64,000 bases of DNA, taken from NCBI RefSeq assembly GCF_057098645.1, contig NZ_CM169472.1, one strand, 5' to 3'. Below the pieces are notes generated by a model. The model made no database searches. It worked only from the letters and a program-made list of their open reading frames with translations, and was not told where the DNA came from. The number at the start of each line of letters is the position of its first letter. The first letter of the stretch is position 1. A program made the position numbers and the translations under genes. Below, in pieces: positions 12,468-57,268 of this stretch.

Positions 12468-12557
12468 TTGCCTCCCCCCCGTTGATGGGTAAAATAGCCG
12501 CAATTTTTCGTTTTCAACAAGCGCGGCGCGATGCCGCTTACTCAAGAAGAAAGAATT

Positions 12558-12622
12558 ATGACGTTGTCTCCTTATTTGCAAGAGGTGGCGAAGCGCCGCA
12601 CTTTTGCCATTATTTCTCACCC
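12558..12622 (+). pseudogene. prfC: Native 5' end of prfC ([22 protein letters not shown]...) cut off by prophage integration
   Basis: atgacgttgtctccttatttgcaagaggtggcgaagcgccgcacttttgccattatttctcaccc encodes the canonical PrfC N-terminus, then reading diverges into phage DNA at 12623. Confidence 0.8.
12609..12622. other. attL core (attatttctcaccc), identical 14-bp copy at attR
   Basis: Exact 14-bp identity with 55730..55743; chromosomal sequence on the left, phage sequence on the right. Confidence 0.7.
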
Positions 12623-12786
12623 CAATAATTAAGCCCAAATTAAAGCTCTTTTACTCTTTCAAAGTCCTTTCAGTTAATTGAGTGTTAATCATATAACTCA
12701 TTTAATAACATGATGTTATGTGGTTTCTTTAATTGAAAATTCTTTCATGTAACTTTAAATCGATCAGGTTGCTTTCATCAAAAATC

Positions 12787-12843
12787 TGTACATGTGCTTG
12801 TACATAATGTACAAAACAGCAGAGGTGGTTTTTTATTTGTACA
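12787..12843. promoter_or_regulatory. Cluster of four TGTACA motifs directly upstream of int; candidate integrase arm-type or repressor binding sites
   Basis: TGTACA at 12787, 12799, 12808 and 12838; TTGTACATAAT recurs at the attR side (55656). Confidence 0.4.
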
Positions 12844-12852
12844 AGGTGAGTA

Positions 12853-14091
12853 ATGGCGCTGTCTGATGCGTGGTTGCGTTCAGTCGTTGGAAAGGAACGT
12901 GATAAGGTTTTGGTTAAATCCGATCGTGATGGTCTGTCTGTCAGAGTATCACCGAAAGGTCGCGTAGTGTTCCAATATCGTTATCAATGGGCAGGGAAAG
13001 GTGAGCGCCTTGATATCGGAACTTACCCGGCAACTGGATTAAAAGAGGCCAGAGAAGAAGTTATCCGTCTCCGTGGTGAACTCGAGTCAAACCGCAATCC
13101 ACGATTAGTCAAGCAGGCTGAAAAACGAAAAGCTACTGAAGCTATGACGGTAGAGTCTGTGATCCGTGCCTGGTATGAAGCATATTGTGTAAAAAATAAA
13201 AAAGGTTCTGAACAGATACTCCGCTCGTTTGAGCTGCACCTGTTCTCTAAAATCGGGAATATCCCTCACGATGCAGCTACATTGCATGATTGGTTAGAAG
13301 TCCTGGAGCCTCTTAGCACTAAGACTCCAGCAATAGCAGACCGATTGCTAATTAACGCAAAGCAGGCCCATGTCTGGGCGTATAAGAGAAAGCTCATTGA
13401 AACTCGCCCGCTGTCGGATATCACGGGTAAAGATATGGATATCCGTAAAGGTCAGAAGAAACGGTTTCTGACACATGATGAAATTAAAATCCTTTATGCT
13501 GCGATCGATGGTTCTCGAATGGTTCCCAAATACCGGGCCTTCATTAAACTATTGCTGCATTTCGGCTGTCGTAGTTCAGAGCTGATTACTGCCAGGGTGG
13601 ATGATTTTGATTTCATTAATAAGGTATGGACTGTACCGCCAGAACGACATAAGACAGGTGATATAACAGGCGAACCGCTAAAGCGCCCCATTATTGAACC
13701 GGTTGAAGAGCTTATAAAATACGTTATCTCTATGAACAACGGTTCCGATATGCTTTTTACCAAGGAAGGAAGCAAGGAGCCAGTTGGTCGGACATCATTG
13801 CAGTCGCTGCCTTACAATTTAATGCAGTACGCATGGCGGCGTTTGGGGTATCAATTTCCTCATTGGTCTCTTCATGATTTGAGACGAACAGCACGAACAA
13901 ACTTTTCTGATCTTACTGCGCCTCATATTGCTGAAATAATGCTCGGTCATAAACTGCCAGGGGTATGGCAAGTTTATGATAAGAGCGATTATCTAGAAGA
14001 ACAGCGTAAAGCCTATCAGGCATGGTGGGATAGGGTTGATTCGATTCTTACTTACACTAATTTAGGTTCCAACAGACAGCCTATTGAATAA
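12853..14091 (+). CDS. int: Phage tyrosine integrase (P4-type, N-terminal arm-binding DUF4102-like domain)
   Basis: 412 aa; catalytic signature HDLRRTARTN ... LGHK ... VYDKSDY; adjacent to attL. Confidence 0.9.
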   Translation: MALSDAWLRSVVGKERDKVLVKSDRDGLSVRVSPKGRVVFQYRYQWAGKGERLDIGTYPATGLKEAREEVIRLRGELESNRNPRLVKQAEKRKATEAMTVESVIRAWYEAYCVKNKKGSEQILRSFELHLFSKIGNIPHDAATLHDWLEVLEPLSTKTPAIADRLLINAKQAHVWAYKRKLIETRPLSDITGKDMDIRKGQKKRFLTHDEIKILYAAIDGSRMVPKYRAFIKLLLHFGCRSSELITARVDDFDFINKVWTVPPERHKTGDITGEPLKRPIIEPVEELIKYVISMNNGSDMLFTKEGSKEPVGRTSLQSLPYNLMQYAWRRLGYQFPHWSLHDLRRTARTNFSDLTAPHIAEIMLGHKLPGVWQVYDKSDYLEEQRKAYQAWWDRVDSILTYTNLGSNRQPIE

Positions 14092-14203
14092 TGAATAGAC
14101 ATACAGAGTAAGAAAATAGTAATGATTCTTGGATTATAATTAACTGGTTGCTGATATTTTGATTTGCCGATTTATGAAGAGACGGTCATTATACTTATAA
14201 AAA

Positions 14204-14243: not shown

Positions 14244-15851
14244 TTATGGCTGAGACTCTGGTTTAGCAATCTCGTTTATAAATTTCTTAGCTACAACAGT
14301 CTCATACTTTCTATAATCATCAAGATATTGAACATCTATATGATTTTCGTAGCGAGCATTAAATTTATTTGCAGCCCCTGTTTTATCATCTTTACGTTCA
14401 TCCGTTGGTCTGAAAAATTTATGGTAGCGGCGGGGTGATACCCCCTCAAAATCACAAAATATTACTTTGGAAGATTCTTCGTTCTTTGTTATTGCATCAT
14501 TATGCAGATCAAGAGCAAGACTTTTATCAAATGGCTCTATATATACTACTTTTTTTATTCCAGCTGCGACAATATGCCTTGCACAGTTGTGGCAGGGATA
14601 GGTTGTCGTAAAAAGAATTTTATCTTTAGTATCGCCGTTTTGTTTTCTAGCCATTGATGTAATGACGTCCATTTCAGCATGAATTGATCTGGAGTACTCC
14701 ATTACACTTGATATTTTGCTGTCTTTGTAAATGCCTTCTGCAATATTATCTAATTTGTTTAGAAGTCGTGTTATATTAATATCGGCAACAGTTTGTCCTG
14801 CGGAAATACCTAATACAGTTCTTACTTCGGTTGATAATATGCTTTTTATACGGTCTTTAATTTTTAGCTTGTTTGCATCATTATAACACTTACCACTTTT
14901 GTGAACGCATCGATGATCGTTATCAAAATCATCACTGCTATACAACCCGCCACCAGCTTTAGGTACGTCGTTCTTACCCACGGCAAGCAAATTCCCTTCA
15001 TCATCAAACAGTGCAGCCCCTACTTGACGTGATAAACAAGCTGATTGTAATGATGTTGAAAAGGCAGCATACATACCTTTCTCGTTAAAAGTTGGTGTTA
15101 AACCATTTTTGCCATGAATAAGACCGAAAAACCGATCAATCTTCTTCTTTAATTCACTTTTTTGGCTGAAGTTATTTTTAATAAAAAAATCTGAATCAAG
15201 AATGGTTTCCCCGGTTCTTTGTCCATACGGATCAGAGGATTTATTATCAATATTGATAATTAAATGAAGGTCGTTCTTTGTCGATTCGTCATCAATGAGA
15301 TTCTGAATTCGGTAATCTAAATCGCGCAAAACTCCTAACAAATAGAAATTATGCTGATATATAACTCTGAATAACTCTATTTCTTCCGGCCTTTTGAATT
15401 GATCAATGATGAAGACAGTACCTTTATATTCATCATTATTATAATCATTATTATAATCAATATTATTTTTCTCTGCTGCGATTGCTGCAATAGCAGCTTC
15501 TGCAAGCAACTCATTTTTTTTGTAATGTTTACGAAGTTTATTGGCAATATCCTGGAGTTTTAAATGTCTATTAGCTTGTGTGCTTTCGGATACCTTCAGT
15601 GCTGCTGGCTCAAAATATAATGGGTTTTCCATAAGCGCACTTATGCGGATGTGTACAACATTATACCCCCATTCTTTGGATATCTCTTCGATAATTTTGT
15701 TTATCGTTCTCATGCCACATCCAACATATCCACACAATCCAAGATAAATATCTTTTGATTGTCGTGAATTCACAATCTCAAGTGATGATGCCGATGTTGA
15801 GCCTTTTTTTTCATTCAGCTTTTGTGGAGTTTTTTTTGCTGCTTCAGCCAT
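14244..15851 (-). CDS. AvcD-like / dCTP-deaminase-family defense protein: N-terminal degenerate P-loop NTPase (kinase-like) fused to a C-terminal dCMP/cytidine-deaminase (CDA-fold) domain
   Basis: 535 aa; degenerate Walker A LGLCGYVGCGMRT (aa 38-49); deaminase zinc motifs HAEMDVI (aa 391) and PCHNCARH (aa 419-426); AT-rich cargo between int and xis. Confidence 0.7.
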   Translation of the reverse strand: MAEAAKKTPQKLNEKKGSTSASSLEIVNSRQSKDIYLGLCGYVGCGMRTINKIIEEISKEWGYNVVHIRISALMENPLYFEPAALKVSESTQANRHLKLQDIANKLRKHYKKNELLAEAAIAAIAAEKNNIDYNNDYNNDEYKGTVFIIDQFKRPEEIELFRVIYQHNFYLLGVLRDLDYRIQNLIDDESTKNDLHLIINIDNKSSDPYGQRTGETILDSDFFIKNNFSQKSELKKKIDRFFGLIHGKNGLTPTFNEKGMYAAFSTSLQSACLSRQVGAALFDDEGNLLAVGKNDVPKAGGGLYSSDDFDNDHRCVHKSGKCYNDANKLKIKDRIKSILSTEVRTVLGISAGQTVADINITRLLNKLDNIAEGIYKDSKISSVMEYSRSIHAEMDVITSMARKQNGDTKDKILFTTTYPCHNCARHIVAAGIKKVVYIEPFDKSLALDLHNDAITKNEESSKVIFCDFEGVSPRRYHKFFRPTDERKDDKTGAANKFNARYENHIDVQYLDDYRKYETVVAKKFINEIAKPESQP

Positions 15852-16047: not shown

Positions 16048-16391
16048 TTATCTTATCCAAACATAATAAAAAACCATATGGCCTTTAGTGTACAACAAAA
16101 CCATACTCTTTCCCCTCATTTTAGAGGGGGAAGTGTGGTCCACATCATGTTTTTTCCCACCCATGAAAATGTTCACCTAGGCTGGTGATGCATTTTATGT
16201 ACATCAACTCTTTGAGTTGAATCATTATTTTAGTATTTTTTCTATCATTGTGTAAATGTCTTCGTTTCAATACATCATGCTTGGGGAGCGGTCCCCGTTT
16301 CCTGATAATTAATGCTTGTGGATAGCAACGTCCGTGCCTGTATCGCTCAGACAGACGCTTACCGTGCCATAGACGTGTCTGTTCACATACG

Positions 16392-16586
16392 TCATTCAAT
16401 AACTCCTGCAAACCTGTAAATCTTGCGTGAAGCCCATTTATTTGGGCATGATTTAATATCAGGATCTGGAAAATCAGGCCTGTACTTCTGGCCAGTTCTC
16501 CGGTTTACGCTGTTCCAGCGAAGAACTGTCGATACTGAAACGCCACAGAAGTCGGCGACTTGTTTAGTTGTCATTAAGTTGTTCAT
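16392..16586 (-). CDS. xis: Excisionase / AlpA-family HTH DNA-binding protein
   Basis: 64 aa; MTTKQVADFCGVSVSTVLRW HTH, then the proline-rich FPDP segment typical of AlpA/Xis. Confidence 0.65.
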   Translation of the reverse strand: MNNLMTTKQVADFCGVSVSTVLRWNSVNRRTGQKYRPDFPDPDIKSCPNKWASRKIYRFAGVIE

Positions 16587-20141: not shown

Positions 20142-20816
20142 TTAGGCCTTTATTATGTATCTTCTTGGTTTTCCTGAGAAAATCACTGTACCAATTATAG
20201 AGCAATTACCGTTGATCTTAATGTAAGGTTCAGGCCAGTTTGGGTTTAATGCTTTGAGGTAACGCTGTGTTCCATCTTCTATCAACCGCTTGAAGGTGGT
20301 TTCGCCTGTATCGTGCATCAATGCAATAACGTCGTCACCGTGGCAGGCAGGGACTTCAGGATCAACAAAAATCATGTCTCCCGGGCGGTACTCATCAATC
20401 ATTGAATCACCAATCACCCGCAAGATATAAGTCATTTCGCCACAGGGTACAGGGCAGGGGTAAGTTTCTGCTGTGCTCAAATCAACCTCAGAATAGCCAA
20501 CTTCTTTCCATGCTCCGGCCTGTACCCATGATATGACAGGGACTAACGTTATTTGTTTGTTAGTGATTGAAACATCAGGTTTTTTTGTGATGTTCGTGGT
20601 CTGGTGTTCTTGATCAAGCCATCCGACAGGCAGGTCGAAACATTTTTCGATGTGCCGCGCCATGCTGTCACCGATATTTTTAGTAGCACCATCTCCCATA
20701 AACCTGCTGGTCTGGGTTGGCTCGCGATCAATCATGGTGGCAAAGGAAGAATTCCCGCCAACACCATCTCTCAGTTTTCTGGCGTTAGACCGCCGGATGT
20801 CATGGACTGTTTTCAT
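20142..20816 (-). CDS. cI: CI-like prophage repressor (HTH plus LexA-like S24 peptidase domain)
   Basis: 224 aa; C-terminal S24 region with GDSM motif (VIGDSMIDEYRPGDMIFVDPE); divergent from a cro-like gene. Confidence 0.85.
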   Translation of the reverse strand: MKTVHDIRRSNARKLRDGVGGNSSFATMIDREPTQTSRFMGDGATKNIGDSMARHIEKCFDLPVGWLDQEHQTTNITKKPDVSITNKQITLVPVISWVQAGAWKEVGYSEVDLSTAETYPCPVPCGEMTYILRVIGDSMIDEYRPGDMIFVDPEVPACHGDDVIALMHDTGETTFKRLIEDGTQRYLKALNPNWPEPYIKINGNCSIIGTVIFSGKPRRYIIKA

Positions 20817-20832
20817 AAAGAAATTAAAACCT

Positions 20833-20851
20833 TTGTACCGATAAGGTACAA
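20833..20851. promoter_or_regulatory. Operator in the cI/cro divergent promoter region (OR-like)
   Basis: Perfect palindrome TTGTACC-gataa-GGTACAA; a second imperfect copy (tgtatacc gga ggtacata) overlaps the cro RBS at 20884..20904. Confidence 0.6.
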
Positions 20852-20906
20852 GTATCTTGAAGGTTCATCTTAATCATGTAATATGTATACCGGAGGTACA
20901 TATTGT

Positions 20907-55095: not shown

Positions 55096-55213
55096 ATCTT
55101 TTCGTGATATGCCGCAGAAACGTTGTATGCAGGAACGTGCTGCGGCTAACTGGTGAACTTTCGATAGTGCGGGTATTGAATGATTTCCAGCCGTTACCGA
55201 TTTTACGTGCTAA

Positions 55214-55462
55214 TTAGTGAACAAACCACTCGTCAGCAGACTCCCAGGTATCTTTCAGAGTTTCCTGAACAAAAGTTTTAGCTGAATCTTTATCGGCAGT
55301 GCGCGTAACAGAAAGGCCATCGTTGCTGGTGGTTTTTACGATCACCTCTACATCGTCATAACGCTTACTGATGCGTCGAGTTAATTCTTCCTTTAACGCA
55401 TCCACAGCACCGTTTGGCATTTTAGTCATTTTCTCTTTGGCTATGCAGATCTCAATACGCAT
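55214..55462 (-). CDS. DinI-like protein (SOS-regulated RecA modulator family)
   Basis: 82 aa, [11 protein letters not shown]...[16 protein letters not shown] closely parallels chromosomal DinI. Confidence 0.85.
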
Positions 55463-55477
55463 AAAAATCCCTCTACA

Positions 55478-55521
55478 CTGTGTTTGTATACAGTATTATT
55501 TTTAACTGTATGAATAAACAG
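55478..55521. promoter_or_regulatory. Two tandem LexA boxes (CTGT-N8-ACAG) in the dinI-like promoter
   Basis: CTGTgtttgtatACAG at 55478..55493 and CTGTatgaataaACAG at 55506..55521, directly upstream of the minus-strand dinI-like start. Confidence 0.8.
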
Positions 55522-55546
55522 TGTCAATAGAACAAAGATTGCTGCA

Positions 55547-55662
55547 TGTACAAATGTTCTTTGGCTACAAATACACCTACTGATCATGTTCTGCTATGCT
55601 CTGATACCTCCAAAATGTACAATCAGCGGCATGAATTTTTCTTTGTACATATGATTGTACAT
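55547..55662. promoter_or_regulatory. TGTACA motif cluster on the attR arm / phage-supplied prfC promoter region
   Basis: TGTACA at 55547, 55616, 55644 and 55657; mirrors the cluster at attL. Confidence 0.4.
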
Positions 55663-55681
55663 AATCAAAGAGACAACAATT

Positions 55682-57268
55682 ATGACAAGCCTTTTGGCCG
55701 CAGAGGTAGCGAAAAGAAGAACCTTTGCAATTATTTCTCACCCGGACGCCGGTAAGACTACCATCACCGAGAAGGTGCTGCTGTTCGGACAGGCCATTCA
55801 GACTGCCGGTACAGTAAAAGGCCGTGGTTCCAACCAGCACGCTAAGTCGGACTGGATGGAGATGGAAAAGCAGCGTGGGATCTCCATTACTACGTCTGTG
55901 ATGCAGTTTCCGTATCACGATTGCCTGGTTAACCTGCTCGACACCCCGGGGCACGAAGACTTCTCGGAAGATACCTACCGTACCCTGACGGCGGTGGACT
56001 GCTGCCTGATGGTTATCGACGCCGCAAAAGGTGTTGAAGATCGTACCCGTAAGCTGATGGAAGTTACCCGTCTGCGCGACACGCCGATCCTCACCTTTAT
56101 GAACAAACTTGACCGTGATATCCGCGACCCGATGGAATTGCTCGATGAAGTTGAGAACGAGCTGAAAATTGGCTGCGCACCGATCACCTGGCCAATTGGC
56201 TGCGGCAAGCTGTTTAAAGGCGTTTACCACCTTTATAAAGATGAAACCTATCTCTATCAGAGCGGTAAAGGGCACACCATTCAGGAAGTCCGCATTGTTA
56301 AAGGGCTGAATAACCCGGATCTCGATGCTGCGGTTGGTGAAGATCTGGCACAGCAGCTGCGTGACGAACTGGAACTGGTTAAAGGCGCGTCTAACGAGTT
56401 CGACAAAGAGCTGTTCCTTGCGGGCGAAATCACTCCGGTATTCTTCGGTACTGCGCTGGGTAACTTCGGCGTTGATCATATGCTGGATGGCCTGGTGGAG
56501 TGGGCGCCTGCGCCGATGCCGCGTCAGACCGATACCCGTACCGTAGAAGCGAGCGAAGATAAATTTACCGGCTTCGTATTTAAAATTCAGGCCAACATGG
56601 ACCCGAAACACCGCGACCGCGTGGCGTTTATGCGTGTGGTGTCCGGTAAATATGAAAAAGGCATGAAACTGCGCCAGGTGCGCACTGCGAAAGATGTGGT
56701 GATCTCCGACGCGCTGACCTTTATGGCGGGTGACCGTTCGCACGTTGAAGAAGCGTATCCGGGCGATATCCTCGGCCTGCACAACCACGGCACCATTCAG
56801 ATCGGCGACACCTTTACCCAGGGTGAGATGATGAAGTTCACCGGTATTCCGAACTTCGCACCAGAACTGTTCCGTCGTATCCGCCTGAAAGATCCGCTGA
56901 AGCAAAAACAGCTGCTCAAAGGGCTGGTACAGCTTTCCGAAGAGGGCGCGGTGCAGGTGTTCCGTCCAATCTCCAACAACGATCTGATCGTTGGTGCAGT
57001 TGGTGTGCTGCAGTTTGATGTGGTGGTAGCGCGCCTGAAGAGCGAATACAACGTTGAAGCAGTGTATGAGTCAGTCAACGTTGCCACTGCCCGCTGGGTA
57101 GAATGTGCAGACGCGAAGAAATTCGAAGAGTTCAAGCGTAAGAACGAAAGCCAACTGGCGCTTGATGGCGGCGATAACCTCGCTTACATCGCTACCAGCA
57201 TGGTCAACCTGCGCCTGGCACAGGAACGTTATCCGGACGTTCAGTTCCACCAGACCCGCGAGCATTAA
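55682..57268 (+). CDS. prfC: Peptide chain release factor 3 with a phage-supplied replacement N-terminus
   Basis: Translational GTPase with G1 motif [12 protein letters not shown]; N-terminus [16 protein letters not shown]... replaces native [17 protein letters not shown]... Confidence 0.9.
55730..55743. other. attR core (attatttctcaccc)
   Basis: Exact copy of 12609..12622; phage sequence on the left, native prfC on the right. Confidence 0.7.

Follow-up and report, generated by a model that had tools for sequence, protein, structure and literature searches.

The stretch of DNA analyzed here (64,000 nucleotides, hereafter the window) carries a lambdoid prophage of 43 kb inserted in the 5' end of prfC. 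On the left, a predicted promoter-like site of native prfC (12468..12495, + strand, TTGCCT-16-TAAAAT) precedes the native start codon at 12558, and the truncated 5' end of the gene (12558..12622, +) forms the B side of attL. The native frame is broken after a 14-bp block, ATTATTTCTCACCC, whose attL copy (12609..12622) represents the core or overlap region and whose identical attR copy lies at 55730..55743. At the right end the phage supplies a replacement prfC 5' end (55682..55743, +), which begins with a start codon at 55682 and runs into the attR core. LC727891 and related Stx phage records annotate these 14 bp as the insertion duplication. The prophage is common in E. coli, being found in 698 of 5,426 complete genomes (at least 80% of a query covering 12500-14200 present), and its relatives include Stx1a, Stx2c and Cdt-I converting phages.

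The integrase gene follows the left junction directly, and prfC' (12558-12622), the P' arm and int all lie on the + strand. The P' arm extends from the core to int (12623..12852, +) and the P arm occupies 55530..55729 (+); the latter is kept as a block in phages whose neighboring genes differ. In the free phages 2H10 and Ayreon the P' arm is contiguous with 55530-55743, and in the genomes of 2H10, Ayreon and cdtI the whole of 55200-55743 is joined directly to 12620 onward. The sequences at the two ends of the prophage, and with them the two TGTACA clusters described below, are therefore the arms of a single attP. Terminator prediction gives no candidate in the interval from the native prfC promoter (12468-12495) to int, so int in the lysogen may be read through from the host promoter, across the leader of the truncated prfC.

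The int gene (12853..14091, +) encodes a tyrosine integrase of 412 residues with three Pfam domains, Arm-DNA-bind_3, Phage_int_M and Phage_integrase. The first of these (DUF4102) covers residues 3-90 (E = 5e-16), and sequence matches in the PDB are the N-domains of CP4-like integrases. An AlphaFold2 model of the protein (mean pLDDT 84.5) places N-domain strands at residues 20-23, 28-32, 38-46 and 49-58 with pLDDT of about 90. The integrase is 98% identical to that of the cdtI phage, a member of the "SXT cluster" of the IntSXT subgroup, all members of which insert at prfC (PMC8138268). This cluster, comprising the SXT/R391 integrative elements and phage cdtI, inserts in the 5' end of the gene (PMC8138268; Hochhut and Waldor, 1999, cited there), and the present prophage resembles it in this insertion point, in the DUF4102 domain and in the element-supplied 5' end.

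The excisionase gene xis (16392..16586, -) encodes a protein of 64 residues of the HTH_17/AlpA type (phrog_1553, E = 8e-35). In most relatives xis comes directly after int, and here the two are separated by a gene for 535 residues (14244-15851, -) that matches the PADLOC "dCTPase" anti-phage defense model (E = 2.4e-164) as well as dCMP-deaminase PHROGs, and that looks like defense cargo put into the int-xis module. At the other end a DinI-like gene (55214-55462, -) adjoins the P arm; its promoter region contains two perfect LexA-type boxes of the form CTGT-N8-ACAG (55478-55493 and 55506-55521), of which the window holds five against 0.67 expected. The immunity region (20142-20882), consisting of cI and its operator, is essentially identical to that of Shigella phages SfV and SfIV. 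These phages differ from the prophage in integrase and morphogenesis genes, which points to modular exchange.

TGTACA clusters on the two arms of attP

A sequence-only reading of the window had drawn attention to the hexamer TGTACA at both prophage ends. Its four copies just upstream of int are all present (12787, 12799, 12808, and 12838), as are the first three of the four that it listed on the attR arm (55547, 55616, and 55644); the last begins at 55656, one base from the 55657 given. The sequence said to be shared by both ends, TTGTACATAAT, has exactly two copies in the window (12798 and 55655). The clusters had also been called mirrored. Both arms do carry one, but the best-defined pairs, 12787/12799 and 55644/55656, are direct repeats with a 12-bp period that point in the same direction (TGTACAT->).

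Overall the hexamer is of ordinary abundance, with 16 copies in the window against 12.5 +/- 3.5 in shuffled sequences, and its distribution is what stands out: 8 of the 16 fall within two short AT-rich stretches that flank the prophage. Local composition predicts 0.07 copies in 12625-12852 and 0.05 in 55530-55682, and four are observed in each. When 16 sites were placed at random, four never fell within 120 bp (0 of 20,000 placements). The enrichment that the earlier reading had proposed to check is thus far above chance, and a similar density does not recur elsewhere in the prophage, the remaining seven prophage copies being scattered over 43 kb.

On the P' arm, the distal member of the 12-bp pair (12787..12792, +; putative site P'-a) is found at a distance of 165 bp from the core, with the int ATG (12853) a further 66 bp along. 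The proximal member (12799..12807, +; P'-b), TGTACATAA, is the best match to gTGTACATAa, the consensus of the integrase family described below. The two further copies on this arm are best read as inverted. One of them (12808..12813, -), TGTACATTA on the minus strand, is an extra copy specific to the enterobacterial clade, and the other (12838..12843, -) abuts the Shine-Dalgarno sequence of int (TGTACAAGGTGagtaATG). The cluster ends 10 bp before the ATG, such that the P' sites cover -66 to -10 of the gene. On the P arm, the 12-bp direct pair is made up of TGTACATAT (55644..55652, +; P-a) and a second copy of TGTACATAA (55656..55664, +; P-b), the latter 26 bp before the element-borne prfC ATG. 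Two distal copies, at 55547..55552 (183 bp before the core) and 55616..55621 (114 bp before it), have weak flanks and are ambiguous in orientation, and their conservation is variable outside E. coli phages. Measured from the 14-bp core, the sites span -183 to -74 on P and +165 to +216 on P'. The core hexamer is itself palindromic, which is unusual for arm-type sites, and asymmetry comes only from the flanking bases.

Repeats and integrases of related elements

Upstream regions were compared for 80 genome loci with integrases 42-98% identical to that of the prophage, giving 78 distinct sequences from Enterobacterales, Pseudomonas, Acinetobacter, Burkholderiales, marine gamma-proteobacteria and alpha-proteobacteria. 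Most of the 80 integrase genes follow a truncated 5' end of prfC, and some follow lepA. In a motif-blind scan of the 150 bp upstream of int (n = 78), the offset at which exact 6-mer direct repeats are commonest by far is 12 bp, with 192 instances compared to about 3 in shuffled sequences and 19 in a coding control; secondary peaks occur at 10 and 20 bp. A pair of GTACA motifs, always exactly 12 bp apart, is found just 5' of int in 69 of the 78 loci, and in 48 of these 69 an inverted copy abuts the Shine-Dalgarno sequence at a median of -19 from the ATG. The family consensus, gTGTACATAa, is asymmetric, and the inverted copies have the same flank. The window fits this pattern with its pair at 12787/12799 and its inverted copy at 12838, to which the copy at 12808 is a clade-specific addition. 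Among 22 distinct close relatives none of the 24 motif positions varies, compared to 58 of 206 other positions in the P' arm (Fisher p = 0.0009). The pair (TGTACAtaattgTGTACAtaa) is still kept in Moraxella phage Mcat19, which has an integrase of 41% identity and a different insertion context.

A search of viral contigs with the integrase alignment yielded only relatives of 97-99% identity. One Vibrio homolog (P0118) proved to belong to a type I restriction-modification island and not to an SXT ICE. The locus of Candidatus Symbiopectobacterium endolongispinus (L012) has an in-frame stop in its int homolog (…FQYRYQ*AG) and TGTAAA in place of the TGTACA equivalent to 12808; it looks like a decaying copy in a symbiont genome.

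The far arm was reached with the element-borne PrfC N-terminus as a probe, and with a LepA probe for elements inserted in lepA. In divergent viral contigs the 12-bp pair recurs 20-45 bp ahead of the prfC start codon that the element brings, matching 55644/55656 in the window, and lepA-inserting elements have equivalent arms with the pair upstream of the element-borne lepA start. The comparison with att arms of related prfC-inserting elements, which the sequence-only reading had suggested, therefore finds the 12-bp pair kept on both arms. Logan contigs for P0023 and P0031 end at the att site. The E. coli genome collection yielded no lepA-type prophage, and the Gifsy-1-type phage SPN3UB was used instead.

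Insertion in the 5' end of lepA rather than prfC was seen at a series of loci (L062, L067, L069, L070, L164, L188-L243, and L246). These elements enter the homologous coding region for the G1 motif (RNFSIIAHID in one of the two genes) and likewise supply a replacement start codon, from which it follows that the family targets paralogous genes for translational GTPases at the same position.

Three subclades have changed the hexamer at every copy while keeping the architecture. In L047 and L051 the motif is GGTGTAAA (GTGTAAA) with inverted TTTACACC; in L027 and L058 GGTACAAA takes the place of the usual hexamer; and in L065, L069 and Klebsiella phage 5 LV-2017 it is TGTCCA(T) with inverted ATGGACA. 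The contiguous attP of SPN3UB allows both arms of one element to be seen, and TGTCCA is present on both, as a 12-bp pair before the surrogate lepA start and as a 12-bp pair with two inverted copies before int. These switches can be followed in the integrase itself. Residue 41, within the strand at 38-46, is Gln in all 73 loci with (T)GTACA apart from L027 and L058; the three switched classes have Met, Ser or Phe there, with Phe accompanying TGTCCA. Every motif switch coincides with loss of Gln41, a correlation built on only some three independent switches. If side chains alternate as is the rule along β-strands, residues 29, 31, 41 and 43 would point to the same side of the sheet, along with the invariant Arg31 and Arg43.

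Which protein reads the repeats?

The candidates are the repressor CI, which the sequence-only reading had put forward beside the integrase, a host factor or RNA polymerase, the excisionase, and the integrase. For CI the starting point is an inverted repeat near cI that is present as that reading had described it: the cI-cro operator TTGTACCGATAAGGTACAA (20833-20851) has the form TTGTACC-N5-GGTACAA, in which the two GTACs begin 11 bp from each other and an inner C/G is present, and no second strict copy of the operator exists in the window. Since the operator TTGTACCgataaGGTACAA and TTGTACA have TTGTAC in common, the clusters could be extra CI operators that silence int and the junction promoters in the lysogen. 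However, the arms carry direct repeats of 12 bp that lack the inner C/G, and the motif does not travel with the repressor. SfV has a cI that is 99.6% identical and the same operator with a different integrase, and its 37 kb contain three TGTACA, none of them at attP. Conversely, the Stx1a phage LC727891 keeps all eight sites while a cI match is absent from its first 12 kb, and the cI matches of at least 99% include none of the Stx1a phage records. The motif is also kept in non-lambdoid islands of many genera, e.g., a Vibrio type I restriction-modification island. By spacing and symmetry, and by comparison with SfV, Stx1a phages and non-lambdoid elements, the proposal of extra repressor sites finds no support; comparative data already largely refute it, and we regard it as the least probable of the explanations weighed here, with hardly any chance of being correct.

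Slightly less remote, and still very improbable, is a role outside recombination altogether, with the repeats acting as promoter elements, host-factor sites or a hairpin in the int 5'-UTR. CATAAT within TGTACATAAT does resemble a -10 element on both arms, and in the mRNA the inverted copy beside the Shine-Dalgarno sequence could form base pairs with a copy further upstream, a pairing that switched motifs would keep. Yet a sigma-70 promoter scan of both arms gave no consensus for int or the surrogate prfC: the P' arm was blank, the P-arm pair had no match on the forward strand, and the only signals were the native prfC promoter and those of the dinI region. A hairpin in the int leader was rejected, as the predicted fold of the 12780-12870 RNA is unremarkable (z = -1.03) and leaves the relevant copies unpaired; nor would a hairpin account for the 12-bp direct pairs or for the P arm. 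A host factor common to alpha- through gamma-proteobacteria, for its part, would not be expected to switch its motif element by element alongside the N-domain of the integrase.

The excisionase requires closer attention. In 57 of 67 loci int and an HTH_17/AlpA-type excisionase are inherited together; int is thus not the only shared DNA-binding protein, and assignment of the repeats to the integrase has to rest on patterns of co-variation. Xis, binding at TGTACA, would bend the arms and set the direction of recombination, and as a neighbor of int in those 57 loci it could in principle co-evolve with a conserved motif. Recombination directionality factors (RDFs) typically bind tandem repeats, in keeping with this reading, but their sites are usually confined to one arm, whereas TGTACA is found on both with inverted copies included. 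Xis sequences also vary greatly among lineages that share TGTACA, even in the recognition helix, which reads VSVSTVLRW in enterics, CSASTLWRY in Acinetobacter and CSSRTLFRR in Pseudomonas, and conversely one Xis type is common to the TGTACA locus L015 and the switched loci L058 and L027. The Gifsy-1 Xis site, footprinted by Flanigan and Gardner in 2007, is reported to consist of three imperfect direct repeats 10 bp apart within 31 bp, a layout that does not fit that of TGTCCA in SPN3UB. A motif that is constant across very different Xis types and present on both arms was consequently rejected as an RDF site, and the excisionase is an improbable reader of TGTACA, if a little less so than a promoter or host factor. 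A tripartite Xis site for Gifsy-1 is mentioned in PMC2603039.

Xis type is tracked instead by a second, lineage-specific repeat that lies between the core and the TGTACA pair. In the window three imperfect direct repeats, CTCTTTTA, CTCTTTCA, and TCCTTTCA, occupy 12646..12672 (+), with further copies of CTTTCA at 12742 and 12772; CTTTCA occurs four times in the window. Among the relatives compared for this repeat (L005, L006, L012, and L072-L082), the unit is CTTTCA in enterics, TTTCAA in Acinetobacter (three times at 10-bp spacing), TAATCA or TAGTCA in Xenorhabdus and Photorhabdus, and AGACAA elsewhere. The CTTTCA-type repeats are candidate sites for Xis or an accessory protein.

The reading that best accommodates these patterns is that the TGTACA repeats (gTGTACATAa) are arm-type sites of the prophage's own heterobivalent tyrosine integrase, and we consider this likely with good confidence. 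The assignment to Int is made because the motif is conserved, switches together with residue 41, and is independent of both cI and Xis type. The integrase has an N-terminal domain in addition to its core-binding and catalytic domains, as seen in the Pfam matches and the AlphaFold2 model. The repeats are distinct from the core and lie on both arms within a few hundred bp of the crossover. The motif also follows the integrase, in 69 of 78 loci across classes of Proteobacteria, and its switches are concerted. The other half of what the sequence-only reading had offered, arm-type sites on P and P', thus receives strong comparative support from the attP flanks, the arm-binding domain, conservation and co-variation with the N-domain.

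Predicted arm sites and known systems

How might these sites work? In the excised phage the two clusters flank the 14-bp prfC core and together form attP. The C-terminal domains of Int would act at the core, and its N-terminal arm-binding domain would dock on TGTACA, probably through the exposed face of the β-sheet that includes Gln41, with each 12-bp direct pair accommodating two Int protomers side by side. Bending of the DNA by accessory proteins would then allow one integrase to bridge arm and core, giving rise to integrative and excisive complexes. A search of both arms for the IHF consensus with up to one mismatch gave no match. Bound at the P' sites, at -66 to -10 of the int start, the integrase probably also represses its own gene, as do IntS of KplE1 and P4 Int. 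On the other arm, the P pair is 26-38 bp ahead of the prfC ATG that the phage supplies and would overlap whatever promoter drives the hybrid gene, and it is a matter of speculation that Int could affect expression of hybrid prfC. The anatomy of the sites, their conservation and their co-variation with the integrase N-domain are observed; Int binding, the geometry of the intasome, autoregulation and any effect on prfC are steps that we infer.

The best-known precedent is phage lambda, whose Int recognizes the arm-type sites P1, P2 and P'1-P'3. Both systems have short repeats that are distinct from the core and located on both sides of it in attP, some copies being tandem and closely spaced, and both integrases have a separate N-terminal arm-binding domain. 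In the prophage, however, this domain is of the DUF4102/Arm-DNA-bind_3 type rather than the lambda type, the motif gTGTACATAa has a palindromic core, and the predicted sites are arranged as one 12-bp pair per arm plus inverted copies beside int.

A closer parallel for regulation is provided by KplE1 (CPS-53), with IntS and TorI, and by P4, with Int and Vis. In these elements the int promoter overlaps attL and is repressed by Int, and a layout in which target gene, attL and int follow one another in a single orientation defines a class for which negative autoregulation has been demonstrated experimentally (PMC2951348). The window has this order too: int adjoins attL and is read in the same direction as the target gene upstream, from which the entire attL arm separates it. 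The distance of 230 bp from core to ATG is in the range of the autoregulated cases (PMC2951348), the putative arm-type sites are immediately upstream of int, and the excisionase is AlpA/Vis-like. With P' sites at -66 to -10 and this KplE1-type layout, autoregulation of int is likely by analogy. Two differences are that the target is the protein-coding prfC instead of a tRNA gene, and that the native prfC promoter may read into int, given that no terminator is predicted between them.

A further comparison is with SPN3UB, of the Gifsy-1 type. Its integrase is a homolog (about 46%, a value obtained with the related Klebsiella phage), it enters lepA at the equivalent G1-motif region of the paralogous GTPase gene with a 14-bp core, and it has a 12-bp direct pair per arm with inverted copies before int. 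It differs in the hexamer, TGTCCA, and in having Phe at integrase residue 41. According to PMC2603039, only Xis sites had been characterized for Gifsy-1. A search of the accessible literature retrieved no description of TGTACA as an arm-type or attP motif, nor of arm sites for SXT-cluster or Gifsy-1 integrases. The kind of element described here is textbook, and what appear to be new are this instance, its deep conservation and the correlation with residue 41.

The finding leaves the understanding of how integrases work unchanged. It does supply an attP map for a very common family of E. coli prophages, which by homology extends to many other elements inserting in prfC or lepA, and which consists of a 10-bp arm consensus, a fixed 12-bp pair per arm, inverted copies beside the ribosome-binding site of int, and one residue that is a candidate for setting specificity. 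Such a map can be used to delimit prophage ends, to predict cross-action between integrases and to design studies of int autoregulation, and it may also help to study how elements rewire a host gene of an essential pathway. A more ambitious proposal, tentative and on present evidence rather unlikely, is that the arm sites double as operators, with P' throttling int and P coupling expression of RF3 to the state of the prophage, and that arm specificity is largely set by a single β-strand residue (Gln41 for GTACA, Phe for GTCCA). If it were true, one-residue specificity would make arm recognition predictable and reprogrammable across the family, including Stx, Cdt and Gifsy phages and islands in prfC and lepA.

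Finally, an isolated TGTACA at 16198, between the putative defense gene and xis, has a good extended match on the minus strand (TGTACATAAA) and may represent either chance or a stray site for Int.
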